DNA of 32,000 bases, taken from the NCBI RefSeq assembly GCF_008000775.2, contig NZ_CP042905.2, positions 3,000,001-3,032,000 of the forward strand, in the 5' to 3' direction. The notes under the pieces were generated by a model that did no database searches, was not told where the DNA came from, and was given only the letters and a program-made list of their open reading frames with translations. The position numbers and the translations under genes are program-made. Origin of the DNA: Promethearchaeum syntrophicum (GTDB lineage: Archaea; Asgardarchaeota; Lokiarchaeia; Sigyniarchaeales; Promethearchaeaceae). The stretch's first letter is position 1. Every line of letters begins with the position of its first letter. Below are positions 1-16,438 of this stretch, in pieces.

Positions 1-909
1 GTGGGAAAAGAGTTAAAAAATGGGTATATTGTTGGAGCTTCGTTCTTTTTAGGTTCTTCAGAATTCTATAATAATTTAATTGCTATGGATGAAGAAGAAC
101 GTAAATTAATTAGAATGAATTCCGTCCTTAAAATTAATCAGCTCTATGGCGGGGAAAAATTAAGACGATTGCAACGAATAGAATCACGTTTCTTTAACTC
201 GGGAATGTATGTGACCTTACTGGGGGCAGTTGCATCCTATCAATTGGAAGATGGTCGGGTAGTAAGTGGAATAGGAGGTCAATTTAATTTCGTTAATATG
301 GCACAAGAATTACACAATGGAAGATCTATTATCTGTTGTAGTAGTACGCGAGGTTCTGGGAAAAAGACCAAATCTAATATTAAATTTTCCTATGGACATA
401 CTTCAATTCCTAGATATCTTAAAGATATTGTAGTTACAGAGTACGGAATTGCAGATTTACGGGGTACTAGTGATGAAGATTGTATTAAAGAAATGCTAAA
501 CATAACAGATTCGCGCTTTCAAGAATCTTTATTAAAAGAAGCGAAGAAAGCGAAAAAAATAAATAATGACTATAAGATTCCGGAGAAATTTAAAAATAAC
601 ACCCCAAAAGGTCTGGTGGACAAATTTAGTTCTTTTAGCGAGAGGGGGTTGTTTAAAACATTTCCGTTCGGTCATGATTTCAATGAAGATGAACTCTCAA
701 TAGCTGTTGCATTAAAAACCGTAAAAAATCATGCTGAAGCTCATAAATTGGATATAATTAAGACTTTAATCAAATCTCCTAATTCAAGAACTATAGAAAA
801 AGCCCATCACTATTTGGAATTGTTAGAACTCGAAAATCCAGAAACCAGTCATGATAAAATTAGCCAGAAATTACTACTCAAAGGCTTGAAATTAACGGGA
901 AAGATATAG
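1..909 (+). CDS. acetyl-CoA hydrolase/transferase family protein (4-hydroxybutyrate CoA-transferase-like), C-terminal part; 5' end lies outside the window
   Basis: The frame is open from base 1. It carries the C-terminal-domain signature of the family: SGIGGQFNF...SIICCSSTRGSGKKTKSNIKF...IVVTEYGIADLRGTSDEDCIKEMLNITDSRFQESLLKEAKK. Confidence 0.8.
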   Translation: MGKELKNGYIVGASFFLGSSEFYNNLIAMDEEERKLIRMNSVLKINQLYGGEKLRRLQRIESRFFNSGMYVTLLGAVASYQLEDGRVVSGIGGQFNFVNMAQELHNGRSIICCSSTRGSGKKTKSNIKFSYGHTSIPRYLKDIVVTEYGIADLRGTSDEDCIKEMLNITDSRFQESLLKEAKKAKKINNDYKIPEKFKNNTPKGLVDKFSSFSERGLFKTFPFGHDFNEDELSIAVALKTVKNHAEAHKLDIIKTLIKSPNSRTIEKAHHYLELLELENPETSHDKISQKLLLKGLKLTGKI

Positions 910-916
910 GAAGGTA

Positions 917-974
917 TTTTTTTCTTTTTCAATTCAAATCAATAAAAATTGAAGAAGTTTTCTTTTTTTTTTTT
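917..974 (+). terminator. oligo-T terminator region downstream of the CoA-transferase gene
   Basis: T7 and T5 tracts lie directly after the stop codon. A 7-bp hairpin follows (TTCAATT 928-934 / AATTGAA 947-953), then a T12 run at 963-974. Archaeal termination typically occurs at oligo-T tracts. Confidence 0.4.
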
Positions 975-1492
975 GTAGAAATTTAATCACAATTGGTGAA
1001 ATAAAAAAACAAAATCGGATTATGATTTTCAGTAAATATTTTATAACGTAATTAATCCTATTGCATTTCTCTCTTATACAGCAGGGTTGTGTTCCCCAGA
1101 TTTTTCTTATATCTGCTAATTTAAGTTTCTTGCGATATTTCACTCTTAGAGTGACTTTTTCTGCTTTTAGCTTCTCAAATGTTTCTGATCTATAAGAATT
1201 TACCGTATCTTTTGAAAAAAGTTGTTTTCTGCGTATATAGAAGTTCGCCGCTGAAATTTTGTAAATTTTTTTTGATCAAAAGACGAAATATTACCAAATT
1301 ATTTATCTAGAAAACGATTTAAAAAAAAAATTTATAACCAATATTGATCAAACTCTTTTCAATGAATTAACAAAAAACACAATTAAAATACCAGATCGAT
1401 TATTAAGAATCAATGAAATCAAAATGAATTTCTACAATTCATGAATTCTTGTGTTCAATGTGAAATTCGTTCTGGTTAATGAAATTTAAGTT

Positions 1493-2059
1493 TTGATAAA
1501 AATGGAGTATCTTAAAGCTGATATTGAATCTCTTGGTGAAAGAACCTCAGAAGAAATCATCAAAGATGAAGTATTAGATTTCATGAAAGCTTGTTATCAA
1601 TGTGGAACTTGTTCGGGTTCATGTCCCTCAGGACGTAGGACTGCGATAAGAACTCGTCAACTGATCAGAGAATCATTGCTAAATATAGAAAAAGTTCTTG
1701 CCGATCCAGATATATGGATGTGTACCACATGTTTCACTTGTTTTGAGCGATGTCCCAGATCACTCCCTACGACCAATATAATCCTCAAATTGCGTAATTT
1801 AGCATGTCAAAGAGGTTTTATGATGGCGTCCCATAAAAGCTTAACTCATATTTTATTTAAAACTGGTCATGGAGTCCCTTTAGGAGGAACAGATAATAAA
1901 TGGACACAAGCACGTGTTTCCTATGGATTACCAAAAATTCCCCCAACAACACATTCACATCCAGAAGCTGTAAAAGAAGTTGAATTATTAATGAAATCAA
2001 CAAATTTTGATAAATTAGTTGATTATAAATCTGAAGAAACTAGCAATGAACAAAAATAA
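1493..2059 (+). CDS. hdrC: heterodisulfide reductase subunit C-like protein (two 4Fe-4S motifs)
   Basis: Two CxxCxxCxxxCP motifs are present: CYQCGTCSGSCP and CTTCFTCFERCP. The size is typical of HdrC. The ORF-track start is a TTG at 1493; the ATG at 1502 (MEYLK) is the more likely start. Confidence 0.85.
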   Translation: MIKMEYLKADIESLGERTSEEIIKDEVLDFMKACYQCGTCSGSCPSGRRTAIRTRQLIRESLLNIEKVLADPDIWMCTTCFTCFERCPRSLPTTNIILKLRNLACQRGFMMASHKSLTHILFKTGHGVPLGGTDNKWTQARVSYGLPKIPPTTHSHPEAVKEVELLMKSTNFDKLVDYKSEETSNEQK

Positions 2060-2130
2060 AATTTACAAAAGAAATAAAAAAAATCTTTTCACCACATAAA
2101 AAAATAGGAGATCGTTCGGGGACTTGCAAA

Positions 2131-2907
2131 ATGAGCAGAAAATTTAAAATTGGAATTCAAGAGTTCGAATCATGTGGAAAAGATATAATTAATCTTTTAA
2201 ACTTAAGACCTGAGATGGAAAAATTACTTAAGAACGTGGAAATTACTCTCTTAGGATACACATCTAACATTGACTGGTCAAGATACCCAAGTATAAAAAT
2301 TCGGGAAGAAATATCAGAAACGGATAAATTTGATGTTATTTTATGCATTGGAAGTATTTTACCCGGACAAGAAAAAAGAATCCATGATTTACGGAATAAA
2401 ACAATACAAATTGTAGCAGTTGGCGCTTGCTCTCTATATGGTGTTCGGCCATCAATCTCCACAAGTGGTTTCACGAATGAGGAGTGGGATGAAGTGGAAA
2501 AAGTTACCAAAAACAAGGTTCCAGAATATCAAGATCTTTTTCGTAAATCTGTGTGTGAAATTGTGAAAACAGAATATAGAATACCCGGATGTCCAATAGA
2601 TGAATATTCATTTATGAAATTTATATATGACCTCATTGAGGGTAAATTACCTCGCCTTGAAGTAGCCCCGGTGTGTTGGGAATGTAAATTGAAAGGTAAC
2701 GAATGTATTTTTATGACTAAAGGAATAGTCTGTTTAGGTCCAATAACTCAATCAGGTTGTGGCGCTCGTTGTCCAACACTCGAAAATAAGCCATGTAGCG
2801 GTTGTGGGGGTTTACTCATCGATGCCAATTTAAAGGAATGGTATCAGATGGTCCTTAAATATGGAAAAACAATTGAGGAAGTCAACAAATTCTTTGTTAG
2901 CAGGTAA
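2131..2907 (+). CDS. [NiFe]-hydrogenase small-subunit-like Fe-S protein (sulfhydrogenase delta HydD / FlxC-like); no large-subunit partner in the window
   Basis: It is colinear with the NADH-ubiquinone oxidoreductase 20-kDa / HydD fold: VAVGACSLYG, IPGCP, PVCWECKLKGNECI, CLGPITQSGCGARCP, CSGCGG. The N-terminal CxxC of the proximal cluster is reduced to ESCGKD. Confidence 0.7.
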   Translation: MSRKFKIGIQEFESCGKDIINLLNLRPEMEKLLKNVEITLLGYTSNIDWSRYPSIKIREEISETDKFDVILCIGSILPGQEKRIHDLRNKTIQIVAVGACSLYGVRPSISTSGFTNEEWDEVEKVTKNKVPEYQDLFRKSVCEIVKTEYRIPGCPIDEYSFMKFIYDLIEGKLPRLEVAPVCWECKLKGNECIFMTKGIVCLGPITQSGCGARCPTLENKPCSGCGGLLIDANLKEWYQMVLKYGKTIEEVNKFFVSR

Positions 2908-2915
2908 GATATATC

Positions 2916-5390
2916 ATGGAAAAAACACAATCAAGCACATTAAATAATATTGATATAAAACAAAAAGGTCAGAAAATAGGCGTTTTTGTTTGTCATTGTG
3001 GGAGTAATATAAATGGAGTGGTTGATTGCAAAGCATTAGCTGAGGAATCTCTTAAAAACCCTGGAGTCATTTTTGCTACGGATTATAAGTTCTTGTGTAG
3101 TGATCCTGGGCAACTTCTAATAAAAGACAAAATCGAAGAATTTGGTCTAGATCGAGTGGTTGTAGCTGCTTGTAGTCCCCGAATGCATGAAAAAACATTC
3201 CGTCGTGTATGTCGAAAGGCAGATCTGAATCCTTTTCTCTTTGAGCAAGCAAATATTCGTGAACATTGTACTTGGGTTCATATGAATGAAAAAGAAAAAG
3301 CACACAAAAAGGCAGGGGATATAATTGCAATTTCATGTGCTAGAGCTAAAGAACTGGATATTCTTGATATTATCACTGTACCTATTACAAAAAATGCACT
3401 TATTGTCGGAGGAGGAATAGCGGGAATATCAGCCGCTCTTGATCTGGCAGATATGGGAATTCCTGTAACTCTTGTTGAGTCAACTCCAACAATTGGTGGA
3501 AATATGGCACGATTAGACAAAACTTTTCCAACAATGGATTGTTCAGCTTGTATTTTAACACCAAAAATGACAGATATTGGGCAACATCCGAACATTAATT
3601 TGATGACCTATTCTGAAATTCTCGAAGTAAATGGTTATATTGGAAATTTCGATGTCAAGATTAAGAAAAAACCTCGTTATATAAAAGAAGATAAATGTAA
3701 TGGTTGTGGCGATTGTGTACCTGTGTGTCCAGCAATTACGTCAAATCCCTTTGAAATGCATATGAGTCCAATTAAAGCAGTTTCTATTCCGTTTCCTCAA
3801 GCAGTTCCACAATTATTTACTATTGACATGGATTCTTGCATTAAATGCGGTAATTGTGAGAAAGCATGTGAACTTGAAGCTATTGATCTAAATCAAGCCC
3901 CAATAATAGTTGAGGAAAAATTTGGAGCAATAATATTAAGCACAGGATTTAAAGTGGCAGATTTAACTTTAGTGCATCCTGAATATCATTATGGAGAATA
4001 TTTGAATGTAATTAGCCATCTTGAACTTGAACGAATGCTAACTTCATTTGGTCCCTCTGAAGGTCAAATTATTCGCCCATCGGATTTTAATCGTCCAAAA
4101 AAAATACTGTTCATTTCATGTGTTGGATCCCGATCACAACGCGAAGGCTATAAACCATATTGCTGTAATGTAGGTTGTATGGCAGCTATGAAAGAAGCAC
4201 GATTAATTATTGAACATCATCCAGATACTCAAATAGATATTTCTTATATGGATGTTCGGGCTTCTGGAAAAGGATATGAAGAATTCTGGGAAAAAGCCGC
4301 TCACGAATATGGGATAACCTATTTCCGTGGACGTATTGCAGAATTATATCAAGATGAGATAACACAAAACATCGTCGCTCGTTTAGAAGATACTCTTCTT
4401 AATCAACTTTTTGAAATTGAATATGATCTGGTTATTCTTGTTGGTGCGGTGGATCAAATGGATGATTTACCTAGTATAGTGAAAACTCTAAATCTTCAAC
4501 AAGGAGCAGATGGATGGTTGTTGGAAGCTCATCCAAAACTCCGACCTGTCGATACACATACAGGAGGAATTTTTGTAGCGGGATTTGTCACAGGACCAAA
4601 AGATATTCCTGCTACCGTCGCTCAAGCAAAAGCAGCGGCTTCCGGTGTTGCCACCTTAATTATGCAAGGAGAAGTCGAAATTGAGCCATATTATGCCGTA
4701 ATTGATCCAGAAATGTGTGGAGCGTGTAAAAAATGCGAAGTTACTTGCCCGTTTGGAGCTCCAGTTTTAGTTACTGATAAAGCACAAGAAGGAAAAATCT
4801 TAGAAATTAATCCCGCTTTATGTACAGGTTGTGGAACGTGTGTCGCAGAATGCAAATATGGAGCAATTCAACAAAATAATTTCACAAGCCGGCAATTATT
4901 TGCATCAACTGATAGAGCATCTGAAAAAATTGAATTGGATATTCCCGATTCCAAATGGGAACCAAATATTCTTATATTCGCTTGCAATTGGTGTAGCTAT
5001 ACTGGGGCCGATTTAGCAGGGACCAGTCGGATTCAATACCCTCCCAATGCACGAGTCGTTCGGATGATGTGTTCGGGAAGATTCGAATTAAGTTTTGGAA
5101 TTCAAGCTTTACTTAATGGATTTGATGGAGTAATGGTAGCTGGGTGTCATCTTGGAGATTGCCACTATACCTCAGGAAATTATAAAATGGAGCGTAGAGC
5201 AGAATATATGCCCCCTATACTTAGAAATTTAGGAATTAATCCAAAGAGATTTCGACTTGAGTGGTGTAGCGCATCAGAGGGGTTACGGTGGGCAGAATTA
5301 AATAAACAATTTGTTGAAGAATTGAAAATCTTAGGTCCTTCTTCCATGCGAAAACGGGTTCAACAAATAAGAAATAACATAAATAAATAA
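2916..5390 (+). CDS. hdrA: heterodisulfide reductase subunit A fused to a C-terminal MvhD-like domain
   Basis: N-terminal VFVCHCGSNI; FAD motif VGGGIAGISAALDLA; MDCSACILTPK. Four ferredoxin-type motifs: CNGCGDCVPVCP, CIKCGNCEKAC, CGACKKCEVTCP, CTGCGTCVAEC. The C-terminus carries the MvhD signature ILIFACNWCSYTGADLAG...VRMMCSGR...GVMVAGCHLGDCHY. Confidence 0.9.
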   Translation: MEKTQSSTLNNIDIKQKGQKIGVFVCHCGSNINGVVDCKALAEESLKNPGVIFATDYKFLCSDPGQLLIKDKIEEFGLDRVVVAACSPRMHEKTFRRVCRKADLNPFLFEQANIREHCTWVHMNEKEKAHKKAGDIIAISCARAKELDILDIITVPITKNALIVGGGIAGISAALDLADMGIPVTLVESTPTIGGNMARLDKTFPTMDCSACILTPKMTDIGQHPNINLMTYSEILEVNGYIGNFDVKIKKKPRYIKEDKCNGCGDCVPVCPAITSNPFEMHMSPIKAVSIPFPQAVPQLFTIDMDSCIKCGNCEKACELEAIDLNQAPIIVEEKFGAIILSTGFKVADLTLVHPEYHYGEYLNVISHLELERMLTSFGPSEGQIIRPSDFNRPKKILFISCVGSRSQREGYKPYCCNVGCMAAMKEARLIIEHHPDTQIDISYMDVRASGKGYEEFWEKAAHEYGITYFRGRIAELYQDEITQNIVARLEDTLLNQLFEIEYDLVILVGAVDQMDDLPSIVKTLNLQQGADGWLLEAHPKLRPVDTHTGGIFVAGFVTGPKDIPATVAQAKAAASGVATLIMQGEVEIEPYYAVIDPEMCGACKKCEVTCPFGAPVLVTDKAQEGKILEINPALCTGCGTCVAECKYGAIQQNNFTSRQLFASTDRASEKIELDIPDSKWEPNILIFACNWCSYTGADLAGTSRIQYPPNARVVRMMCSGRFELSFGIQALLNGFDGVMVAGCHLGDCHYTSGNYKMERRAEYMPPILRNLGINPKRFRLEWCSASEGLRWAELNKQFVEELKILGPSSMRKRVQQIRNNINK

Positions 5391-5399
5391 ATAAAATAT

Positions 5400-6476
5400 G
5401 TGAGAGTGAAAATCATTACTAAAAAAAGGAATTATAGGGAAGGAAATATTTCAGACATCATAAAATTTATTGATGAAATTTTAAAAACATATACTGTTAT
5501 TGCACCAACAAAAATTGAAGGAAAACAAACAAAATTCACTCAAATTTCTTCAAGCACTGAAATCCTTCTTAATCCGAATCACCAAACAAGTTTCTCTTTT
5601 AAAGAGTGGTTACTTCCACGAAATCAAATTTTATTGCAGTATAATTTCGATAAAAATGACATTACCATAGATGATTCCGTTGATTTTTCTTCTAAAAAAC
5701 GGATATTATTCGGACCTCATCCATGTGACCTCCATTCAATTCAAATTCTTGATAAAATCTTTTTAGAAGAAAAAGATTTGGATGTTCATTATAAAAAATT
5801 ACGTGAAAATACATTAATTATTGGATTAGGATGTAAAGAACCATTTAAAAATTGTTTTTGTGCAAGTGTAAATACACTTGAGCCACCAGATGGAACTTAT
5901 GATTTATTCCTTTATCTAAAAGGGAAAAAATTCTATGCATTTGAAGGTTCTTCTGAAGGGGCAGATTTAATAAAAAAATTGAAATCTAAAGTGTCAATTG
6001 ATGGAGAGAAACAGATATCCTTAATAAATAAACACATTGCTTCTTCACAAACATTTAAATTCCCAAAAGATGAAGATATTGGAGCAAAAATCAAAGAAAC
6101 CTACGGATCTGAGTTTTGGGATGATCTTGGTAAAAAATGTTTTGGATGCGCAGGTTGCACAATCGTTTGCCCAACATGTTATTGCTTCTTTGTGGATGAC
6201 AAAGTAGAAAATGATGGAAAGAAAAAAATGTATAAACGTATTAGAGATTGGGATTCTTGTACTCTAAATAATTGGGCTTTAGCAGCAGGAGGTCATAATT
6301 TTCAAAATAATCGAGGAATTCGCTTAAATAGACGATTTATGCACAAATTCTCACAATTAAAAACGAAATTAGGAAGGATTGCTTGTGTTGGATGCGGTCG
6401 TTGTATTGATATATGTCCTACAGGTGCAAGTAACCCAGTAAATGTCATAAAAGATCTAATTAAATTCAAAAAATAA
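5400..6476 (+). CDS. 4Fe-4S cluster protein, sulfhydrogenase beta (HydB) / FlxB / AsrA-like
   Basis: Motifs CFGCAGCTIVCPTCYCF and CVGCGRCIDICP, plus the upstream GCKEPFKNCFCAS, are typical of HydB/AsrA-type subunits. The start is a GTG; there is a 9-bp gap from hdrA. Confidence 0.7.
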   Translation: MRVKIITKKRNYREGNISDIIKFIDEILKTYTVIAPTKIEGKQTKFTQISSSTEILLNPNHQTSFSFKEWLLPRNQILLQYNFDKNDITIDDSVDFSSKKRILFGPHPCDLHSIQILDKIFLEEKDLDVHYKKLRENTLIIGLGCKEPFKNCFCASVNTLEPPDGTYDLFLYLKGKKFYAFEGSSEGADLIKKLKSKVSIDGEKQISLINKHIASSQTFKFPKDEDIGAKIKETYGSEFWDDLGKKCFGCAGCTIVCPTCYCFFVDDKVENDGKKKMYKRIRDWDSCTLNNWALAAGGHNFQNNRGIRLNRRFMHKFSQLKTKLGRIACVGCGRCIDICPTGASNPVNVIKDLIKFKK

Positions 6477-6506
6477 TAATCTTGTTAAAGAACTGGATGT
6501 AAAGAT

Positions 6507-7388
6507 ATGGATAATAAAAAAATAGACACTAAAACGAACAGTTGGAAACCGATGACTGCCCGTCTTTCTAAAATTGTGCCTCAATCTTCTTTTGAAAAAT
6601 TGTATTCAATAGAACTTGAAAATCCGAATGAAAAAAAGCAGTTCACTTGGATGCCGGGTCAATTTCTTGAGCTTTCAGTTTTTGGAATTGGGGAAGCTCC
6701 ATTTTCAATTTCGAGTTCCCCTACAAGTGGTACTTTGGAAATATGTGTTCGGGCAACTGGATCAATTACTAATGCACTTGAAAAAATGAAAGAAGGAGAA
6801 AAAGTAGGGATACGTGGACCATTTGGGAACTCTTTTGTTGTTCCTGAAGCAAAAGGAAAGAATTTAGTTTTAGTTGCAGGAGGGATTGGTCTTGTTCCTT
6901 TACGTTCAATGATAAATTATGTATTGGATAAGCGGGAAGAATTCAAAGAAGTATTTATTTTTTACGGAACACGAGATCCAACCCAAATTCTGTTCCAAGA
7001 TGAAATTGAACAATGGCAAAAACGCAATGATATTCAATTTATGTTAACGGTCGATCGAGGATCTCCTGATGCAGGATTTGGTGAACCAGATCCTAGTGGA
7101 AAATATCAAGGAAATGTAGGGGTGGTAACAACTCTTTTTTCAAAAATAGATATTCCGTCAAAAAATACAATGGGATTTATTGTTGGACCCCCAGTGATGT
7201 TTAAATTTGTTGTTAAGGAATTTGAAAAACTCCAAATTAAACCATCAAATATTATTGTTTCACTTGAACGAGTTATGCATTGTGGAATCGGCAAATGCGC
7301 ACATTGTCAAATTGGGGATATTTTAGTATGTAGAGATGGTCCCATATTCACTTATGAACAAGTTCAATCAATGCCAGATGCAATTTAG
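6507..7388 (+). CDS. FAD/NAD(P)-binding 2Fe-2S oxidoreductase, sulfhydrogenase gamma (HydG) / FlxA / AsrB / PyrK-like
   Basis: Ferredoxin-reductase-type barrel (PGQFLELSV...APFSISS), nucleotide-binding LVLVAGGIGLVPLRS, and a C-terminal 2Fe-2S motif CGIGKCAHCQIGDILVCRDGP. Confidence 0.8.
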   Translation: MDNKKIDTKTNSWKPMTARLSKIVPQSSFEKLYSIELENPNEKKQFTWMPGQFLELSVFGIGEAPFSISSSPTSGTLEICVRATGSITNALEKMKEGEKVGIRGPFGNSFVVPEAKGKNLVLVAGGIGLVPLRSMINYVLDKREEFKEVFIFYGTRDPTQILFQDEIEQWQKRNDIQFMLTVDRGSPDAGFGEPDPSGKYQGNVGVVTTLFSKIDIPSKNTMGFIVGPPVMFKFVVKEFEKLQIKPSNIIVSLERVMHCGIGKCAHCQIGDILVCRDGPIFTYEQVQSMPDAI

Positions 7389-7397
7389 TGATAACTT

Positions 7398-9236
7398 ATG
7401 AAAAAAAACAATGAACAAATCAATGAAAATATTATGAAAATTAAAGATCAACCAGAATCTATCCAACAATTAATTGATTTAGGAAAAATCTACCTTCAAA
7501 AACATGATATATTAGAAGCACGCTATTATTTCTTAAATGCTATTAATCAATATCCAGATAAAGTTGATGGATACCTATCTATGGGAATGTTTGCATATAA
7601 GGATAATAATTTGGATGTTGCGCATGATTATTTTAACCAAGCGATTGATATTGATGAAGAAAATATTAATGCTTGGCTTGGTCTAGCAAAAATAAATTTA
7701 AAACTTACAGCTCTAACAAGTACAAAACGCTATATTAAACGAGCATTAAAACTTGCCCCCAAAAATCCAGAAGTTCTTTTAATTTGGGGAGTATATAATT
7801 TTTTAATTCATAAATATGGATTATCTGAAAAAATTTTACTCCAAGTCGTATCCTCATCAAAAAATGAAACATTCCTGAATGCAACTTTTTATTTAGGTTT
7901 GTTGTATGCAAAACAGAGAGAATTTATGAAGGCAGCTAGTAAATTCCGCCATTTATCTGAAATTGAAACTTATAAAGATAGAAATCTATTTAATGATGCG
8001 GTTGTTCAAAATAATTTAGGTGTTATTGAATTTCAATTAGGAAATTATGATAAAGCAGAAGAGATTTTTAAGAATTTGCTTGTTCGGAAAACAACGTTTG
8101 AATCCACAGTATTAATGAATCTTGCTCAAATGTATTGGATCCAAGATAAAATCGATGACGCAGTTAAATCTATTAATCAAGCACATAACATTGATGTAAA
8201 AATTTGGCCATGGATGCAGGAATTAAATGAATACTTACAAACTGGGGAAGAAGGATTAGCGAATAAAATTAAGTCTTTACTAAAACATAACCCTGATGGA
8301 TTAAACTTGTCAATGTATTTAGGGTGTGTGATCCCCAACCGTTATCCGTTTATTGAAGCCGCTTCTCGGCATGTACTTGATTTCTTTGAAATTGGAATTC
8401 AAGAGCTTGAAGGAGCCTCTTGTTGTCCCGCTCCTGGTGTTTTTAGATCCTTTGATTTTCTTACGTGGTACGTAGTTGGAGCAAGAAATATTACATTGAG
8501 TGAAAAATTAGGCGTGGATATGTGCACAATGTGTAACGGTTGTTATGGAACGTTAAATGATGTCAATTGGGAACTTAAAGAAAATAAATCCATACGCGAT
8601 GAAGTAAATCAAAAATTGAAAGATATTGATCGTGAATTTAAAGGTTCTATTAATGTTCGTCATATAATTGATGTGTTTTATAATAGTGTCGGTGTAAAAG
8701 AAATTAAAAAAAAAATTGTAAATCCAATGAAATTAAATGTTGCAGTCCATTATGGATGTCATCTCCTAAAACCTTCTTTTAATAAACCTTGGAAAGAATC
8801 GAGTGAAGCTCCAACATTCTTTGATGAATTGGTGGAAATCACTGGAGCAAAATCCATTCCTTATAAAGATAAAATGATGTGTTGCGGAGCAGGTGGAGCA
8901 GTTCGTGGAGGAATGAAGGAAGTATCATTGGATTTTACGTATGAAAAACTTCTAAATATGCGGAAAGCGGGAGTAGATATTATAGTAGTTTGCTGTCCTT
9001 TCTGTCATTTACAGTTTGATTTAGGCCAAATTGAAATAAATAGTATTTATAAGGATAAAATAGCAGAACCGTTTAAAATTCCGGTTATCTATTACACTCA
9101 ACTCTTGGGATTGGCATTAGGTATGGATCCTTTTAAATTAGGTCTATTAAAAACTCCGAAAGGAAAAGGTGTTCCTCCATTCATTCCTGTTGAGTCAATT
9201 TTTTCTCGTTATATTGAACAGATTGATTGGATTTGA
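7398..9236 (+). CDS. hdrB: TPR-repeat domain fused to heterodisulfide reductase subunit B (two CCG domains)
   Basis: Residues about 20-300 form multiple TPR-like units (LGKIYLQKHDILEARYYFLNAINQYPD, NAWLGLAKINL, NNLGVIEFQLGNYDKAEEIF, MNLAQMYWIQDKIDDAV). Residues about 300-612 hold two CCG domains (LGCVIP...ASCCPAPG...CTMCNGC and YGCHLL...MMCCGAGG...VVCCPFC). Confidence 0.85.
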   Translation: MKKNNEQINENIMKIKDQPESIQQLIDLGKIYLQKHDILEARYYFLNAINQYPDKVDGYLSMGMFAYKDNNLDVAHDYFNQAIDIDEENINAWLGLAKINLKLTALTSTKRYIKRALKLAPKNPEVLLIWGVYNFLIHKYGLSEKILLQVVSSSKNETFLNATFYLGLLYAKQREFMKAASKFRHLSEIETYKDRNLFNDAVVQNNLGVIEFQLGNYDKAEEIFKNLLVRKTTFESTVLMNLAQMYWIQDKIDDAVKSINQAHNIDVKIWPWMQELNEYLQTGEEGLANKIKSLLKHNPDGLNLSMYLGCVIPNRYPFIEAASRHVLDFFEIGIQELEGASCCPAPGVFRSFDFLTWYVVGARNITLSEKLGVDMCTMCNGCYGTLNDVNWELKENKSIRDEVNQKLKDIDREFKGSINVRHIIDVFYNSVGVKEIKKKIVNPMKLNVAVHYGCHLLKPSFNKPWKESSEAPTFFDELVEITGAKSIPYKDKMMCCGAGGAVRGGMKEVSLDFTYEKLLNMRKAGVDIIVVCCPFCHLQFDLGQIEINSIYKDKIAEPFKIPVIYYTQLLGLALGMDPFKLGLLKTPKGKGVPPFIPVESIFSRYIEQIDWI

Positions 9237-9269
9237 GTATGAAAGTATTAATCGTTGTATAAGAAAATT

Positions 9270-9278
9270 AAAAAAAAA
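9270..9278 (-). terminator. oligo-T (T9 on the minus strand) downstream of the protease gene
   Basis: An A9 run on the plus strand equals T9 in the minus-strand transcript. It lies about 26 nt after the stop codon at 9304. Confidence 0.35.
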
Positions 9279-9303
9279 CAGATTAAAAATTAAAGCTTAT
9301 TTG

Positions 9304-11364
9304 CTATAACGTAGTTAATCCGGAGGTATTTCCATCGTATTCTTCAGGGGTGTCTGCTCCTGATTGTGGATATGCAGCAAGTGCGTAATCAAATGCATTT
9401 TCCATAAATGTTGAAGGATTGCTGCCATAATGATTAATTAAAGTATATTCTAAGAAGAAATATGTCCACATTCCATTTTGTTGGGCGGAATAATCATAAC
9501 CATAACCACTGTCTGAACAAGTTGTAGTGCAATAAACAGCATTACTGTTAGGCATGGACATTAATTCAGGTCCAAATCCACCAGAATAACAATGATCAAT
9601 AAATACAAAAACACTTTCTGCAACGGCGTTATCTAAAATTCCAGCTACTTCAGTGTCATATAAATCACCATCTTCTCCACTTTCTCCAGAAGCACAATCC
9701 CATGCACATATATATGAAGATCCTGATCCATCACCTGAACCATGACCAGAAGTAATATATGCTACATCACCTTCTTGACTTGCTAGCCATTGCAAATAGT
9801 ATTTAATATTATATTCTGTAGCATATCCATCGTATTTTGGATAATTTGTGGTATGTCCATCACCTAAAACAATTACATTTTCACTTGAATAACCGCAAAC
9901 TTGTGTGAGATAATTGAACCAATCAGTTGCATCTTCATCACAATATGAAAGATCACTTATAGCTTTATAATCAGAAATTCCAACTATTAACGCGAATTTT
10001 CCCCCAGAACTTGGGATGTTATCAACGGTGACTGATATAGAATCTTCTTCATAGTTTCCTGCTTCATCATAAGCGCGAACAGTTATTGAATGAGAGCCTT
10101 CAGAAGCTGTTGTAGTGTCCCATGACCAAGAATAAGGAGCAGTTAAATCGTCAGTCCATGCACCAGCATCAATCTTATACTGTGTTTTTACTACCCCTAC
10201 ATTATCTGTTGCGGTTGCTGAAATAGAGATGGTATCTTGGACTGTTGCACCATTAGTTGGAGCCGTAATTGATACAACGGGTTTTTCATAGTCTCCACCA
10301 CTAATTGTGTAATAACCAACTGTTGCAGTATAGGCTGTGCTTGAAGCAGATGAAGTATACATTCTTACAGCAATATAATATGTTCCAGCTGTTGTAATGG
10401 TATATGAGCATGTTTCAGGATTAGACGTCGTATATCCTCTTGCTAAATAACTTGTATAATCTGGAGATTGGCAGATATAACAATCAATGTCATTAGAATT
10501 CCCCCATGAAACCGAAACATCCATGAGTCCAGGCTCTGCATTAACTTCGTAATAATCAACTTCATAACCGGCGACAGCACCTACAAAATCACGCGATACA
10601 TGAACGGGGTTACTTGGATTATTATTTACGTTTACAGAAATTGAATCATCAGCATAATTTCCTGCCGCATCATAAGCTCGAGCGTTAATTGTATGAGTCC
10701 CATCTGAAACAGCTGTACTATCCCAACTGAATCCATATGGACTAGTTGTATCATCAGTCCAGGCACCCCCATCAATGTTGCATTGAACTTTGGTTACCCC
10801 CACATTGTCATTCGCGTCAACAGCAATTGAAATGGTTCCACTTACTGTATCTAAATTATTTGGAGATGTAATTGAAACTGTTGGATCTACAGTATCTGAA
10901 CCACCATCATCGATATAATATTTTACAGAAAGTGTATAAGCGGTTGACGAAGCCCAACGACTATACATTCGAACGGCAATGTAATAAGTCCCCTCACTCT
11001 GAATATTATAGGAGCACGTTTCAGGATTATTCGTAGTATACCCCCTTGCTAAATAATTAGTATAATCGGGTGTTGGACAAATATAGCAATCAATATCATA
11101 ACTATTCCCCCAAGATACGGAAACTTCCATCAAACCTGGGACTACATTATCAATTTGAAAATAGTCGACTTCATATCTTGCTACAGCATCATTAAATACG
11201 TCAGTTACTTGAACTGCTCGAATGCCCATTTCACTATTAAGATTTTTACGCACAATTTCGTCTGAATCTACTGCTAAACTCTGATTTTGTGCCGTAAATA
11301 CAATAGTGGTGCTTATGAACATTATCAAAATAAATAATTTAAATCGTTTACTAAAGGATTTCAT
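9304..11364 (-). CDS. secreted clan-CD (caspase/legumain-like) cysteine peptidase with two N-terminal PPC + Ig-like modules
   Basis: Signal peptide MKSFSKRFKLFILIMFISTTIVFTAQ from the ATG at 11364 (the ORF track extends to 11436). Two repeats each combine a pre-peptidase-C-terminal-like domain (YEVDY...DIDCYIC...GTYYIAVRMY) and a bacterial-Ig-like domain (VSITSP...DNVGV...AYDAAGN). The C-terminal caspase-like domain reads FALIVGISDY...ITSGHGSG...FVFIDHCYSGGF, giving a His/Cys dyad. Confidence 0.75.
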   Translation of the reverse strand: MKSFSKRFKLFILIMFISTTIVFTAQNQSLAVDSDEIVRKNLNSEMGIRAVQVTDVFNDAVARYEVDYFQIDNVVPGLMEVSVSWGNSYDIDCYICPTPDYTNYLARGYTTNNPETCSYNIQSEGTYYIAVRMYSRWASSTAYTLSVKYYIDDGGSDTVDPTVSITSPNNLDTVSGTISIAVDANDNVGVTKVQCNIDGGAWTDDTTSPYGFSWDSTAVSDGTHTINARAYDAAGNYADDSISVNVNNNPSNPVHVSRDFVGAVAGYEVDYYEVNAEPGLMDVSVSWGNSNDIDCYICQSPDYTSYLARGYTTSNPETCSYTITTAGTYYIAVRMYTSSASSTAYTATVGYYTISGGDYEKPVVSITAPTNGATVQDTISISATATDNVGVVKTQYKIDAGAWTDDLTAPYSWSWDTTTASEGSHSITVRAYDEAGNYEEDSISVTVDNIPSSGGKFALIVGISDYKAISDLSYCDEDATDWFNYLTQVCGYSSENVIVLGDGHTTNYPKYDGYATEYNIKYYLQWLASQEGDVAYITSGHGSGDGSGSSYICAWDCASGESGEDGDLYDTEVAGILDNAVAESVFVFIDHCYSGGFGPELMSMPNSNAVYCTTTCSDSGYGYDYSAQQNGMWTYFFLEYTLINHYGSNPSTFMENAFDYALAAYPQSGADTPEEYDGNTSGLTTL
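10024..11175 (-). repeat. intragenic tandem duplication, two units with a period of about 609 nt (203 aa) encoding PPC + Ig-like modules
   Basis: Residues about 88-270 and 291-471 of the protease align end to end, for example SVSWGNSYDIDCYICPTPDYTNYLARGYTTNNPETCSY against SVSWGNSNDIDCYICQSPDYTSYLARGYTTSNPETCSY. Confidence 0.85.
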
Positions 11365-11614
11365 AATATCATCTTCTAACAATTGGAAAAAACCCAATCC
11401 GAGATAATAAAATAAGATTTTGAAAGGTTTTTCCAATTGTTAAATATTTTAATAAATAGATTTATAAATTTATGGATCTTTTTTATATTAATATATAAAT
11501 ATTAAAAAAAAAATCCCACAAAATATAAAAAAAAAGGATTTTATTTTTTTCATTTAAAAGGAAAAAAATAATTTTTAAGTAGAATACCGACAAAATTAGA
11601 TTAGGGAAAAATTT

Positions 11615-12181
11615 ATGCGGAAAAATAAATTATTTTTGTGTTTGTTATTAGTAAGTATTCTCGGAATTTCGACATTCGGAAACGCTACTGCCTATAATAA
11701 TCGTAATGTTGAACTCTCTGATGAAGTTTACCTAATAGTTAGTGCCGAGTACCCTGAATCTGAAGATGATGGGCCGGAAGATCCACCTGAACTTTTACCT
11801 AATGACGAAATTATAGAATTTATAAATGCGACCTATTATGATATTGATGGTGACGGGTCTGAAGATGATGTCCTAACTGATTTCATTTTTAGAGTTCCTA
11901 CTGGAAACTTTGCATTTATGAGATGTGATATATATGTCGAATTAGAATTACCATCAACAACAACATTTTATGCCTATTTCAGATTTTTCGGAGCATTTAG
12001 TGAAGTTGCATTCTTCTTGGATTGGATTAATGTTGCAACTGAGGGTGGAGATTATATATTCACTGTTGTAATTGATTATGTTGGAACAGATATAACGGGA
12101 TATCCCTTATCAGGAATTATTTCAGATTTTATTGTGTTTGATCCACCAGTTAACGGTCCTATAGGTGGATTTCCTGGTTGA
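11615..12181 (+). CDS. small secreted acidic protein, function unknown
   Basis: Signal peptide MRKNKLFLCLLLVSILGISTFGNATA, an acidic Pro/Glu/Asp stretch, and a DxDxDG-type loop YYDIDGDGSEDD. No family was recognised. Confidence 0.5.
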   Translation: MRKNKLFLCLLLVSILGISTFGNATAYNNRNVELSDEVYLIVSAEYPESEDDGPEDPPELLPNDEIIEFINATYYDIDGDGSEDDVLTDFIFRVPTGNFAFMRCDIYVELELPSTTTFYAYFRFFGAFSEVAFFLDWINVATEGGDYIFTVVIDYVGTDITGYPLSGIISDFIVFDPPVNGPIGGFPG

Positions 12182-12334
12182 ATATTATTTAATAATTTTT
12201 TTTTCTCCAAAATAGAAAAATGTTAGAGTAATCTAATACTCAATTAGATGATTGTTCGAGAATCTTAGTAATAAATAAATATTATTTTACTACTAATGTG
12301 TTAAATTCTTATCAAAAAAAAAAAAGATAAAAAA

Positions 12335-14848: not shown

Positions 14849-16438
14849 TTATCGAGCTTTCTTTGCTTTATGAACCTCTTTTCCAGCATTTCTTAAAGCT
14901 TTTGGTAAAGCTTTCGTATATGCTTGTTGTTCTATTTTATTTTTTGCCTCAGTGGCTTCTTTAATTTTTGATATTATCATAGTTAATTCAGCTTTAGTTC
15001 CATCGGAAAGAAATTTCGCTTCTTTAACCAATATACTCTCGGCTCGTTTAATATTCAATTCTGTTATTCGGTTTTGTATTTTTCTCTCTTGGCGTTTTGC
15101 TTTCTGAACATTTCCAGTTATTGACATAGCAGTCGTTCCTTTTAATCCCATTTCTATAATCATTAATTGAATATTTCGATGCCCACCTAGTACTTCAATT
15201 AATCTTGATAAATTTTCTAGTCGATTAATGCTCGAATTGGAATTAAACTCACTGATAGAACCACGTCCACCCATTGTTTGAACTACTTCATATGCAGCTT
15301 GATTATAAAATTTACTAATTAAATATTTTCCTTGTGCTGCTTGAACGGCTACACTTCCTTCATCTGTTGGATTAGGTTTTTCCCCATGATGGATTTTGTT
15401 ACCCACCTTTTTATCATAAAAATCAGCAATCTGGAACGCAAAGGCTGTGTATGCTGCAGCTTTAGAATAAATATCGTCTAAAGTATGGCTGATTCCTTGA
15501 TTTTTAAATAAAGGTTTTCCAAATTGATGCCGAATTTGAGAGTAAATTACACCATGTGCAAGCGCACTCCAAATTCCTGCAATCCCCGCACCAATAATTG
15601 CTACTCGTTCGGGAGTAAGCCCACGGAATAATCGTTTATAACCTTCACCTGGTTTTGCTAACATTCGGTCTGCAGGAACAGTAACATTATCATATGTTAC
15701 TTTTCCAACACCAATGCCCTCCGCCCCCGGGATTCTTAAACGTTCTGTTTTTAATCCTTCATCTCCACGCTCGAATAAAGTGAGCATCATAGTCATTCGA
15801 GGATTTGAAATGTCAGTAACTCCATATGAGCTAAAATAATCAGCTACAGCACCATTTGTTGTATATATTTTGGTCCCATTGTAGGTAATCGAGCCATCAT
15901 CGCCAATATTGGCTTGCATTTTCATGTTTACCGCATCTGAGCCGTGATCAATTTCGGTAATCCCAATCCCACCAATAGATTGCCCGTTATATATTTTTTT
16001 TAATGCTTTTTCTTGAATCTCTGTTCGATTCGGATTATGAAATAAGGAATTTCCTACCAGGATAGAAGACGCGGTTGCTGCCATATCAGCTTCAGGGCTT
16101 AAGGATACATTACAGAGGTTAAGGAGCATTTGTCTTTTACATGACCCTTCATTGCCATCATAAGGGTTCATTCGCTGGAGTTGATAATTTTCACCCCATT
16201 TTGGAAAAAGGGCGTATGCATCTCCATTTTTATAGGCTTCATTTGAAAAAGAAACGAGTTTTACATTCTTTTCTTGGAAATCTGATACCATATCTCTTTC
16301 CTCCTTAGATAATATGGGAAATAGATTGGCGTTGATAAATGAATAACGATTTTTTAAGTTGAGTGCTTTCTCGTAATTTTTTTCTAAGAGATTAGTATAA
16401 AGTGCTTCATTAATGTTTAGTTTCAATTTTTTCACCAT
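14849..16438 (-). CDS. acyl-CoA dehydrogenase family protein with N-terminal and Lys-rich C-terminal extensions
   Basis: ACAD motifs GIGITEIDHGSDAVNMK, YNGTKIYTTNGAVADYF, RHQFGKPLFKNQGISHTLDDIY and VQTMGGRGSISEF. It is 529 aa, whereas I recall typical ACADs at roughly 380 aa. Confidence 0.85.
   Translation of the reverse strand: MVKKLKLNINEALYTNLLEKNYEKALNLKNRYSFINANLFPILSKEERDMVSDFQEKNVKLVSFSNEAYKNGDAYALFPKWGENYQLQRMNPYDGNEGSCKRQMLLNLCNVSLSPEADMAATASSILVGNSLFHNPNRTEIQEKALKKIYNGQSIGGIGITEIDHGSDAVNMKMQANIGDDGSITYNGTKIYTTNGAVADYFSSYGVTDISNPRMTMMLTLFERGDEGLKTERLRIPGAEGIGVGKVTYDNVTVPADRMLAKPGEGYKRLFRGLTPERVAIIGAGIAGIWSALAHGVIYSQIRHQFGKPLFKNQGISHTLDDIYSKAAAYTAFAFQIADFYDKKVGNKIHHGEKPNPTDEGSVAVQAAQGKYLISKFYNQAAYEVVQTMGGRGSISEFNSNSSINRLENLSRLIEVLGGHRNIQLMIIEMGLKGTTAMSITGNVQKAKRQERKIQNRITELNIKRAESILVKEAKFLSDGTKAELTMIISKIKEATEAKNKIEQQAYTKALPKALRNAGKEVHKAKKAR

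Follow-up and report, generated by a model that had tools for sequence, protein, structure and literature searches.

The six-gene operon considered here, from the cultured Asgard archaeon Promethearchaeum syntrophicum, raises the question of what enzyme could be built from HdrA, HdrB, and HdrC together with three subunits of a soluble hydrogenase when the hydrogenase large subunit is missing. The operon lies in a 32,000-nucleotide stretch of the genome (NZ_CP042905.2, positions 3,000,001 to 3,032,000), referred to as the window. Its order from 5′ to 3′ is HdrC, a small-subunit-like (delta-like) protein, an HdrA-MvhD fusion, HydB-like (beta-like) and HydG-like (gamma-like) proteins, and a TPR-HdrB fusion, with gaps of 71, 8, 9, 30, and 9 bp between successive open reading frames (Table 1). 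The ORF listing and profile searches bear out the sequence-only reading of a same-strand operon of these families with 8-71 bp gaps; HdrABC, MvhD, the small-subunit fold, and the FAD/NAD fold were all confirmed by profile, and motif inspection found the cofactor-binding motifs intact in all six proteins. The intergenic region 5′ of hdrC contains only short low-complexity ORFs and no credible small gene.

Table 1. Features of the operon and its upstream flank (window coordinates).
Feature	Position	Strand	Description
CoA-transferase, 3′ part	1..909	+	723-aa divergent 4-hydroxybutyrate CoA-transferase / acetyl-CoA hydrolase family; whole gene L114:439-2610
Presumed promoter region	910..1492	.	A/T-rich, 584-bp, intergenic, 5′ of hdrC
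HdrC	1493..2059	+	188 aa; 2x[4Fe-4S]
Delta-like, orphan group 3b-type [NiFe]-hydrogenase small subunit	2131..2907	+	258 aa
HdrA-MvhD fusion	2916..5390	+	824 aa; MvhD [2Fe-2S] domain residues 685-807 (nt ~4968-5336)
Beta-like, HydB/FlxB/AsrA-like iron-sulfur subunit	5400..6476	+	358 aa
Gamma-like, HydG/FlxA/AsrB-like FAD- and NAD(P)H-binding subunit with [2Fe-2S]	6507..7388	+	293 aa
TPR-HdrB fusion	7398..9236	+	612 aa; TPR residues ~1-290, HdrB catalytic domain residues 304-583

A hydrogenase-less, Flx/Hdr-type interpretation of this gene set came through the computational checks suggested for it and agrees with the published MK-D1 annotation, in which the genes appear in the same order as HdrC, 'FrhG-like', HdrA, FloxB, FloxA, and HdrB (DSAG12_03218-23; PMC7015854). 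Since the operon is already listed there, it represents a catalogued but so far unstudied form of an established enzyme type and not a new system. The new elements are the apparent origin of the delta-like protein from a group 3b delta subunit in the place of FlxC, the conserved Asp at its proximal cluster, the relationship of the Hdr core to a paralogue linked to aldehyde:ferredoxin oxidoreductase (AOR), the ~10.8-kb indel shared with a CoA-transferase, and the distribution, which includes a divergent metagenome contig.

The Hdr proteins are readily assigned. HdrC matches TIGR03290 at 191 bits (cut-off 160) and carries CxxCxxCxxxC twice, at residues 34 and 77. The HdrA-MvhD fusion matches the HdrA2 model NF040770 over residues 20-809 at 1013 bits, just below the cut-off of 1100, and its FlpD/MvhD domain scores 163 bits. 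In its HdrA part, GGGIAG (residue 165), CC (residue 416), and four copies of CxxCxxCxxxC accompany a retained FAD site, the clusters of the N-terminal and thioredoxin-reductase domains, and the ferredoxin domains, both inserted and C-terminal; the MvhD part retains Cys 690/693/719/744/749/784. In TPR-HdrB, the catalytic domain matches TIGR03288 at 400 bits (cut-off 345) and CCG at 107 bits, with two CCG motifs supplying C310/C342-C343/C376/C379 and C454/C495-C496/C532-C533/C536, and multiple TPR families match the protein. Full-length TPR-HdrB fusions were found only in the same family, with one paralogue in the genome. The closest paralogue of the Hdr core is the AOR-linked Hdr cluster of this family (MK-D1 DSAG12_02801-02808; L066, L063, L064), at 58-60% identity for HdrC, about 50% for HdrA, about 50% for MvhD, and 50-53% for TPR-HdrB. 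The TPR-HdrB fusion is common to both; however, in the AOR-linked cluster hdrA is not fused to mvhD, TPR-hdrB is divergently transcribed, and the input is AOR and ferredoxin instead of beta, gamma, and delta.

The remaining three genes resemble the group 3b [NiFe] sulfhydrogenases, such as the alpha-beta-gamma-delta enzymes SHI and SHII of Pyrococcus furiosus (PDB 9e1j, 9nez), to whose beta, gamma, and delta subunits they are homologous. The delta-like protein matches Oxidored_q6 at 40 bits (cut-off 27); its best NCBIfam matches are sulfhydrogenase delta ShyD (106 bits) and HydD (99), followed by VhuG (75), and its best PDB match is SHI delta (89 bits). In the alignment, 'SCGKD' replaces the expected C-x-G-C while the remaining 10 Cys are conserved, so that a conserved Asp stands in for one proximal-cluster Cys, as in FrhG, which provides a functional precedent (PMC3591093). 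The protein is predicted to carry three [4Fe-4S] clusters as an electron wire, the proximal one on Cys3Asp (C15, D18, C100, C154). Alignment and tree place it among the group 3b delta subunits as a long-branch offshoot, with two clade-specific insertions and a monophyletic clade (support 100/100, stem 1.83). The beta-like protein has two ferredoxin motifs and additional Cys (Fer4_22, 100 bits), and its clade also sits on a long stem. The gamma-like protein combines NAD_binding_1, FAD_binding_6, and DHODB_Fe-S_bind domains with GGIGLVP and Cys 259/264/267/275; it matches PRK08345 at 265 bits and ShyC at 225, and its identity to gamma subunits encoded in 3b operons reaches 50-51%, against 38.6% to FloxA of its own genome. 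The donor lineage is not resolved by the beta, gamma, or delta trees. Homologous group 3b operons are common in the phylum.

What sets the operon apart from these enzymes is the absence of the catalytic alpha subunit. Homologues of the delta-like protein at 28-35% identity lie in beta-gamma-delta-alpha operons in all 14 other loci examined, each with the large subunit directly 3′ of delta, and at one such locus, L048, hdrC-hdrB-hdrA-mvhD genes lie immediately next to the 3b operon. Here, the genes are instead split by hdrA-mvhD. With alpha lost, the small subunit would therefore survive only as an electron wire, in FlxC's place.

It is proposed, with a probability of about 0.6, that the operon specifies a soluble reductase of the heterodisulfide type that depends on NAD(P)H and operates by flavin-based electron bifurcation or confurcation. 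Its Hdr core would be a duplicate of the family's AOR-linked Hdr, and its input module the beta-gamma-delta part of a group 3b hydrogenase minus alpha. In a complex of the six products, NAD(P)H would be oxidized at the FAD of the gamma-like subunit, and electrons would pass from its [2Fe-2S] cluster through the beta-like clusters to the three [4Fe-4S] clusters of the delta-like subunit, then through the MvhD [2Fe-2S] cluster to the HdrA FAD, where they would be split. One branch would run via HdrC to HdrB, whose non-cubane clusters would reduce a disulfide or persulfide; ferredoxin is the presumed second substrate, and the reaction could run in reverse. The TPR domain, which is Cys-free, may recruit a protein-bound substrate. 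A direct analogue of this wiring may be seen in the canonical Flx-Hdr of the same genome, with its FlxA/FlxB homologues, ferredoxin-type FlxC, and MvhD. A difficulty for the step from delta to MvhD is that, in sulfhydrogenase, beta should dock against delta at its distal side.

FlxABCD-HdrABC (Flox/Hdr), which occurs in Desulfovibrio vulgaris and other anaerobes, is a NADH dehydrogenase/heterodisulfide reductase (Ramos et al. 2015). Like it, the operon unites MvhD and HdrABC with counterparts of FlxA (the gamma-like FAD/NAD(P) subunit with [2Fe-2S]) and FlxB (the beta-like Fe-S subunit of HydB type) in a single cluster that lacks a hydrogenase, and is so labelled in the MK-D1 paper (PMC7015854). 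However, the claim that the two share the same subunit set had to be corrected, as FlxC of the genome's own Flx cluster is a plain 2x[4Fe-4S] ferredoxin-type protein and its counterpart here has the hydrogenase small-subunit fold of group 3b delta. The operon also differs in the fusion of MvhD to HdrA, the N-terminal TPR domain of HdrB, and the interleaved gene order. The genome lacks DsrC, which has been proposed as the substrate of bacterial Flx-Hdr, and the window has no sulfur-carrier gene, which counts against the proposed reductase. The MvhAGD-HdrABC complex of hydrogenotrophic methanogens, whose solved structure is wired from small subunit through MvhD to the HdrA FAD (PDB 5ODC), likewise joins a small-subunit-fold protein with MvhD and HdrABC, as does mvhG-hdrC-hdrB-mvhA of this genome; the operon differs in lacking MvhA, in adding an NAD(P)H diaphorase pair, and in having a 3b rather than a 3c small subunit. 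HdrA2B2C2 of Methanosarcina acetivorans, an F420H2-dependent bifurcating Hdr, shares the HdrA-MvhD fusion, with the NF040770 match spanning the whole protein, but not beta, gamma, delta, or the TPR domain on HdrB. CoM-S-S-CoB, as in methanogens, is not expected in Promethearchaeum, a non-methanogen.

The beta-gamma modules of P. furiosus sulfhydrogenase support NADPH-linked sulfur reduction, which lends some plausibility to a less probable arrangement, in which HdrA is a mere conduit in a non-bifurcating NAD(P)H:disulfide (or polysulfide/persulfide) oxidoreductase that does not involve ferredoxin, or in which something other than NAD(P)H is the physiological donor. Flx is labelled 'of unknown function' by the MK-D1 authors, and HdrA2-type fusions of Methanosarcina use F420H2 (PMC5861303). 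However, the type I architecture of HdrA is complete, with an inserted ferredoxin domain whose counterpart in the Mvh-Hdr structure serves ferredoxin reduction, known HdrA-containing complexes are bifurcating (PMC5861303), and the motifs for FAD and NAD(P) in the gamma-like subunit are canonical.

An NAD(P)H- and Hdr-linked hydrogenase would result if the delta-like protein paired in trans with a catalytic subunit encoded elsewhere. The genome is not hydrogenase-poor, as it encodes one group 3c [NiFe] large subunit (MvhA), one group B [FeFe] hydrogenase, and a NuoCD-like orphan, all outside the operon; archaeal fusions of [FeFe] catalytic domains to [NiFe] small-subunit domains are documented (PMC11216029), and a ligand is kept at every proximal-cluster position. 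Such pairing is nevertheless improbable. PF00374 has a single match in the 4.32-Mb genome, at 3.7316 Mb, and the window is therefore without a [NiFe] large subunit, as had been claimed. The suggested genome-wide search for an orphan large subunit recovered only this one, 0.73 Mb from the operon in its tight mvhG-hdrC-hdrB-mvhA operon, beside a VhuG-type small subunit that scores 217 bits against 75 for the delta-like protein of 3b origin. The [FeFe] enzyme is unlinked, 770 kb away, and has been modelled with its own partner (PMC11216029). The NuoCD-like protein, also unlinked, contains just 4 Cys, lacks NiFe motifs, and occurs in 11 of 13 other family genomes, none of which has a delta-like match. 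The great length of the stem and the insertions specific to the clade are consistent with an old partner having been lost.

Orthologous arrangements bear on the same point and on whether the operon could be a mosaic that is recent in origin by acquisition, decaying, or without function. The divergent metagenome contig L082 keeps the delta-hdrA/mvhD-beta order at 55/73/54% identity, likewise without a large subunit between delta and hdrA, and L081 keeps hdrC-delta-hdrA, with HdrC 98% identical. The operon and the upstream CoA-transferase form one ~10.8-kb indel whose site is empty in a genome of the same genus (G217), and no orthologue was found in 160 other genomes (species representatives) of the class; the operon is therefore dispensable for the lineage. 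This lineage-specific indel and the long beta and delta stems would suit a mosaic, but none of the six ORFs is broken, their ligand sets are complete, the arrangement is kept in orthologues at 91% and 55% identity, and all six genes are uniformly expressed at RPKM 222-320, typical for the genome (PMC7015854), making decay quite unlikely.

Both neighbours on which a role in acyl-CoA oxidation had been suggested are present: the CoA-transferase (AcetylCoA_hyd_C, 120-123 bits; at most 69 bits to 4-hydroxybutyrate CoA-transferases in the PDB) and, at 14.8 kb, an acyl-CoA dehydrogenase (14849-16438, minus strand). The link itself is weak, for only the former lies within the indel, and the latter is outside it on the opposite strand. 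The CoA-transferase is co-inherited with the operon, though its part in the system is uncertain.

It is very improbable that the beta- and gamma-like genes are AsrA and AsrB of an anaerobic sulfite reductase fortuitously placed among hdr genes: AsrA is the top NCBIfam match of the former (183 bits; ShyB 163 and HydB 159, all three under cut-off) and AsrB reaches 210 bits with the latter, but the curated cut-offs (323 and 289 bits) are not reached and the sulfhydrogenase models score similarly, the beta-like gene also follows hdrA/mvhD in L082, and AsrC is absent genome-wide (best match 40 bits, cut-off 324). As for the proposed hydrogenase-less reductase, a second Hdr locus of the genome without a large subunit combines an MvhG-like protein and an NAD(P)H flavoprotein of the GltD/NfnB type, which suggests that the design has been reused.

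The six co-directional genes of the operon, their subunit families, and the short gaps between them (71, 8, 9, 30, and 9 bp, in order) are as the sequence-only reading had described them, as borne out by the ORF list, by the Pfam and NCBIfam profile scans through which families were assigned, and by a motif check of the expected ligands. HdrC carries two ferredoxin motifs, while HdrA possesses the FAD-binding GxGxxG motif, four ferredoxin motifs, and both the thioredoxin-reductase-domain and the N-terminal cysteines. The MvhD domain contains six Cys, HdrB has both CCG motifs, and the gamma-like protein has four Cys and a GGIGLVP motif. With six ORFs and a complete set of expected ligands, the observation is confirmed as written. 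The diaphorase-type proteins score below the equivalog cut-offs (beta-like, ShyB 163 bits; gamma-like, ShyC 225 and PRK08345 265 bits). The hdrC gene has two start candidates, the TTG at its first listed position and an ATG three codons later, and the 584-bp gap 5′ of the operon holds no credible small gene.

Genes of the operon and related features. Plain numbers are window positions; G000:C1 is the whole contig of the same genome, other G- and C-numbers are other genomes and their contigs, and L-numbers are fetched loci.
Feature	Position	Strand	Match or content
ORF1 HdrC	1493-2059	+	TIGR03290 191 bits, above cut-off
ORF2 delta-like Oxidored_q6 protein	2131-2907	+	ShyD 106, HydD 99, VhuG 75 bits
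ORF3 HdrA-MvhD fusion	2916-5390	+	HdrA2 model NF040770 1013 bits; FlpD 163 bits, residues 685-807
ORF4 HydB/AsrA-like Fe-S protein (beta-like)	5400-6476	+	Fer4_22 100 bits
ORF5 HydG/AsrB-like FAD/NAD(P) protein, [2Fe-2S] (gamma-like)	6507-7388	+	NAD_binding_1, FAD_binding_6, DHODB_Fe-S_bind
ORF6 TPR-HdrB	7398-9236	+	N-terminal TPR, C-terminal HdrB; TIGR03288 400 bits, above cut-off
Caspase-like protein, 710 aa	9304-11436	-	Ig-like, PPC, and caspase (Peptidase_C14) domains; 3′ edge of the indel
Hybrid histidine kinase	20478-22334	+	C-terminal receiver domain
Hybrid histidine kinase	24111-25874	-	C-terminal receiver domain
Actin-family protein, 557 aa	28623-30296	+	Actin 227 bits; C-terminal double zinc ribbon domain
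0.66-Mb Hdr locus	G000:C1:652000-671999 (L013:5637-13298)		Second cluster without large subunit
NuoC/NuoD-fusion-like orphan P0122, 538 aa	G000:C1:817556-819169 (L112:7557-9173)	+	Four Cys
MvhD-domain match	G000:C1:1865294-1865668 (L011)	-	Two in-frame TGA codons
Group B monomeric [FeFe] hydrogenase, 526 aa	G000:C1:3768108-3769688 (L028:1411-2991)	-	TIGR04105 538 bits, above cut-off
TPR-HdrB copy beside mvhG-hdrC-hdrB-mvhA	G165:C11:161000-176726 (L065)		39% identity
Complete 3b operon with Hdr genes	G081:C88:17000-33000 (L048)	-	241 bp between 3b operon and hdrC

The sequence-only reading assigned the operon the subunit set of bacterial FlxABCD-HdrABC, which stands for FlxA, FlxB, MvhD, and HdrABC but not for FlxC, whose counterpart is replaced by a protein of the group 3b delta type. 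The gamma-like protein combines FAD/NAD(P) and [2Fe-2S] domains, as FlxA does, and is 38.6% identical to the genome's own FlxA (FloxA). The beta-like protein belongs to the same Pfam family as the genome's FlxB (FloxB), with 33% identity. The FlxD-type [2Fe-2S] adaptor is present in the form of MvhD, though fused to HdrA, and hdrA, hdrB, and hdrC all lie alongside the flx-like genes. However, the operon lacks a gene for FlxC, a ferredoxin-type protein with 2x[4Fe-4S], and contains the Oxidored_q6 protein instead. Since the genome's own Flx-Hdr cluster (L037) encodes FloxA, FloxB, MvhD, and an FlxC that matches only Fer4 ferredoxin families, the hydrogenase-derived delta-like protein occupies the place of FlxC in the window operon. 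The Flx subunit definitions used here rest on the published table for strain MK-D1, the scan of L037, and general knowledge.

Group 3b [NiFe] hydrogenases share with the operon a delta subunit with ligands for three [4Fe-4S] clusters and a beta and gamma diaphorase (31–38% and 36–51% identity to 3b operons, respectively), but the operon lacks their alpha subunit. At all 14 comparison loci (two in bacteria and 12 elsewhere in the phylum), which carry delta homologs of 28–35% identity, the gene order is beta-gamma-delta-alpha, with the [NiFe] large subunit directly 3′ of delta. The gamma-like protein reaches 50–51% identity to the gamma subunits of 3b operons, above its identity to the genome's own FloxA, whereas the beta-like protein is about equally distant from 3b-operon beta subunits and the genome's own FloxB. 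In phylogenetic trees, neither groups with FloxB or FloxA of the same genome and deep branches are unresolved; trees of beta, gamma, and delta gave no resolution of the donor lineage of the module. The operon also resembles MvhAGD-HdrABC (group 3c) in having MvhD and HdrABC with a type I HdrA, but it lacks MvhA, and its small subunit is only distantly MvhG-like by its VhuG score. In architecture, the HdrA-MvhD fusion is like that of HdrA2B2C2 of Methanosarcina, but the HdrA2 model matches residues 20–809 at a score below its 1100-bit cut-off. By its composition, the operon would appear to work in the manner of Flx-Hdr without FlxC, using the parts of a 3b hydrogenase without the large subunit.

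By analogy, the product of the operon is probably an NAD(P)H-linked bifurcating or confurcating Hdr (probability roughly 0.6). The gamma FAD would first oxidize NAD(P)H. Electrons would leave it by way of the gamma [2Fe-2S] cluster, cross beta and then delta through their clusters (three in delta), and reach the HdrA FAD via the [2Fe-2S] cluster of MvhD. At the HdrA FAD, they would be split between HdrC/HdrB and ferredoxin, or the reaction would run in the reverse direction. This path is drawn from the solved Mvh-Hdr complex and from sulfhydrogenase architecture. Among the Hdr-type clusters of the genome, this operon is the one with a recognizable NAD(P)H entry point. A reductase that is non-bifurcating or that is fed by a different donor is unlikely, though it is the strongest of the alternatives; in HdrA2B2C2, the electron donor is F420H2 (PMC5861303).

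As for the electron acceptor of the proposed NAD(P)H-linked enzyme, CoM-S-S-CoB is not to be expected as the disulfide substrate. A DsrC-type disulfide is excluded as the substrate since the genome contains no PF04358 (DsrC) match, and no sulfur-carrier gene is found in the window. A protein partner is suggested by the TPR domain of HdrB, which is free of Cys. Tentatively, the small subunit may serve as an Fe-S wire from the NAD(P)H diaphorase to MvhD-HdrA, having lost its catalytic partner, with the TPR domain on HdrB recruiting a protein-bound sulfur or disulfide substrate. MvhD could possibly be docked on the face of delta left vacant by the large subunit. The conversion of hydrogenase modules to non-hydrogenase redox enzymes is assumed for complex I. 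If the wire model is true, the operon, in which a hydrogenase small subunit is reused with no large-subunit homolog alongside, would provide a living example of such a conversion in a cultured Asgard archaeon and a compact test case for the modular evolution of bifurcating enzymes. The TPR domain would likewise open a route to the substrate on which Hdr acts in non-methanogenic archaea and could serve as bait for the thiol substrate.

Among solved structures, the best match of the delta-like protein is the delta subunit of Pyrococcus furiosus sulfhydrogenase I (89 bits), followed by the small subunits of Vhu (61 bits) and Mvh (55 bits). A search of 5.8 billion proteins returned one relative at 97% identity and three at 57, 55, and 53% (P0003-P0005, one of which is named Promethearchaeota), below which identity falls to 38% or less among ordinary ‘sulfhydrogenase delta/FrhG’ proteins. 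In the alignment, Cys is found at 11 of the 12 ligand positions for three [4Fe-4S] clusters. The clade has SCGKD in place of the C-x-G-C of true delta subunits, so that the second proximal-cluster ligand is a conserved Asp (D18), whereas C15, C100, C154, and the eight medial and distal Cys are kept. Since functional FrhG also has Asp at a proximal-cluster ligand position (Mills et al., 2013; PMC3591093), D18 is no argument for cluster loss. Two clade-specific insertions are located at approximately residues 41–51 and 108–113. The maximum-likelihood tree recovers the clade as monophyletic (100/100) and places it, apart from MvhG sequences, among 3b delta subunits that radiate without resolution. 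Its stem, at 1.83 changes per site, is the longest internal one.

It is very unlikely that the delta-like protein pairs in trans with a catalytic partner encoded elsewhere, though the genome holds three candidates, all unlinked to the operon and each judged unlikely. The sequence-only reading had found no [NiFe] large subunit in the operon or window and had called for a whole-genome check for an orphan; the check upheld it, with a single PF00374 match in the 4.32-Mb genome, at 3.73 Mb. The matching protein, 445 aa long, is a large subunit of the VhuA type (group 3c); it is encoded in an mvhG-hdrC-hdrB-mvhA operon and thus already has a cognate small subunit, the 453-aa MvhG, which scores 217 bits against VhuG as compared with 75 bits for the delta-like protein. 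The genome encodes three Oxidored_q6 proteins in total: this MvhG, the delta-like protein of the operon, and, at the 0.66-Mb Hdr locus, an MvhG-like protein of 418 aa. The second candidate, the [FeFe] hydrogenase, is encoded approximately 770 kb past the window; it was overlooked in the 2020 MK-D1 paper, which credits the genome with a single hydrogenase, and this has already been corrected (Greening et al., 2024; PMC11216029). The third, the NuoCD-like orphan, lacks NiFe motifs, has protease, membrane, and unknown genes as neighbors, and is encoded in a genome from which complex I is absent. It is also found in 8 of 135 neighboring-family genomes. As it is kept in 11 of 13 other family genomes, and the delta-like protein has a match in none of the 160 other class genomes, these 13 included, the orphan is not a dedicated partner.

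An identity of the beta- and gamma-like genes as AsrA and AsrB is less likely still: both resemble the AsrABC proteins, but below cut-off (AsrA, 183 vs. 323 bits; AsrB, 210 vs. 289 bits), and AsrC is absent genome-wide, with the best TIGR02912 match at 40 bits vs. a cut-off of 324. The anaerobic sulfite reductase AsrABC was thus rejected. Neither of the two outcomes that the sequence-only reading had named as contrary to it, a cognate large subunit and AsrABC membership, was therefore found. Decay of the operon is similarly remote; in MK-D1, RPKM values for DSAG12_03218 to 03223 (292, 320, 299, 222, 286, and 244) resemble those of typical genes (PMC7015854).

Among the matches listed, full-length TPR-HdrB is found only in the family of the window organism (50, 48, and 39% identity) and in an in-genome paralog at 2.506 Mb (53%), and the other HdrB matches listed from 200 sampled phylum genomes cover the HdrB part alone, mostly in frames of ~300–350 aa. 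For the 2.506-Mb paralog and the copies of the two closest relatives (G094 and G089), TPR-hdrB is divergent from hdrC-hdrA-mvhD-unknown-AOR-ferredoxin, and in this cluster (MK-D1 DSAG12_02801-08) the identity to the window proteins is 58–60% for HdrC, ~50% for HdrA, and ~50% for MvhD. From this distribution and these identities, the window Hdr core is read as a paralog of the AOR-linked Hdr in which hdrA and mvhD were fused and the input module was exchanged. The third TPR-HdrB copy, in G165, directly adjoins mvhG-hdrC-hdrB-mvhA, indicating that the TPR-HdrB form is not bound to one input module. In addition, the complete 3b operon of L048, one of the 14 comparison loci, is followed on the same strand by hdrC-hdrB, several hdrA-like genes, and mvhD, so genes for 3b hydrogenase and for Hdr can occur side by side. 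The ancestral layout of the window operon may have been of this type.

The genome contains at least five Hdr-type clusters. At the 0.66-Mb locus, a gene for an Lrp-type regulator precedes hdrC-hdrB-hdrA-mvhD, after which come the genes for the MvhG-like protein and for an 819-aa GltD/NfnB- and FrhB-like flavoprotein. Seven MvhD-domain matches exist in the genome, and the in-frame TGA codons in one of these may encode selenocysteine, as in VhuD, or mark a broken gene.

The operon has a narrow distribution. No delta-like ortholog (E ≤ 1e-40) was detected in 160 other class genomes, three of which are from same-genus species (74–89% complete), nothing above 38% identity occurs in 200 phylum genomes, and a contig scan of genomes returned only bacterial 3b operons with 28% identity. 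When window positions 1-12200 were searched as DNA against five related genomes, only paralogous hdr segments (65–71%) and the caspase/Ig-domain gene (80%, in the same-genus genome G217) were matched, with no match to the delta, beta, or gamma genes. In G217, contig C226 carries a transporter gene (82% to L113:15083-16489), ~80 bp, the caspase-like gene (87% at the amino acid level), and the next two genes. The same transporter and caspase-like genes are ~10.8 kb apart in the window genome, and the junction is covered by the G217 contig itself. A search at the junctions turned up only A/T-rich words and neither repeats nor IS ends. The ~10.8-kb interval consists of the six-gene operon and a gene for a divergent 723-aa protein of the 4-hydroxybutyrate-CoA-transferase family, and as both lie in this interval, the CoA-transferase is co-inherited with the operon. 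This lends some backing to the proposed link to acyl-CoA metabolism, but the acyl-CoA dehydrogenase at 14.8 kb is encoded on the opposite strand and beyond the indel. The caspase-like gene between the operon and the dehydrogenase holds its position in G217, where the operon is absent. Orthologous loci were found in a metagenome scan, with L081 encoding hdrC-delta-hdrA (98, 91, and 93% amino acid identity) and L082 encoding hdrB-delta-hdrA/mvhD-beta (59, 55, 73, and 54%), where the position of hdrB differs from that in the window. L082 indicates that a delta-hdrA/mvhD-beta core without a large subunit has been kept in a lineage whose proteins have diverged to ~55% identity.

The operon was catalogued before for MK-D1, under labels that are essentially those of the sequence-only reading. 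Imachi et al. (2020; PMC7015854) tabulate ‘heterodisulfide reductase complexes’ in their Supplementary Table 4, one of which has a gene order identical to that of the window: DSAG12_03218 HdrC, 03219 ‘FrhG-like oxidoreductase’ (labeled sulfhydrogenase 2 delta by Prokka), 03220 HdrA, 03221 FloxB, 03222 FloxA, and 03223 HdrB. Two further MK-D1 Hdr clusters correspond to the 0.66-Mb and 3.73-Mb loci found independently here, and the terminal repeat known from the ISNCY element of MK-D1 is found in three 1,769-bp elements of the genome. An origin shift of ~0.573 Mb relates the three Hdr loci to their MK-D1 counterparts, and one of the 1,769-bp elements lies where this shift predicts. The single 4.32-Mb contig, of which the window covers positions 3,000,001-3,032,000, is thus that of MK-D1 or of a nearly identical strain. 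A literature search found no paper analyzing the operon, nor any orphan small subunit wired to Hdr. The advance made here is incremental and computational: it documents a 3b delta in the place of FlxC, an Asp ligand in this delta, HdrB fused to a TPR domain, the AOR-linked-Hdr paralogy, the lineage-specific indel of ~10.8 kb, and the L082 core. Models of Asgard syntrophy and eukaryogenesis hinge on the routes by which MK-D1-type archaea get rid of reduced ferredoxin and NAD(P)H; since the operon is lineage-restricted and already catalogued, its general importance is moderate. Elsewhere in the window, the two hybrid histidine kinase genes lie a few kb apart, and the actin-family gene follows them.
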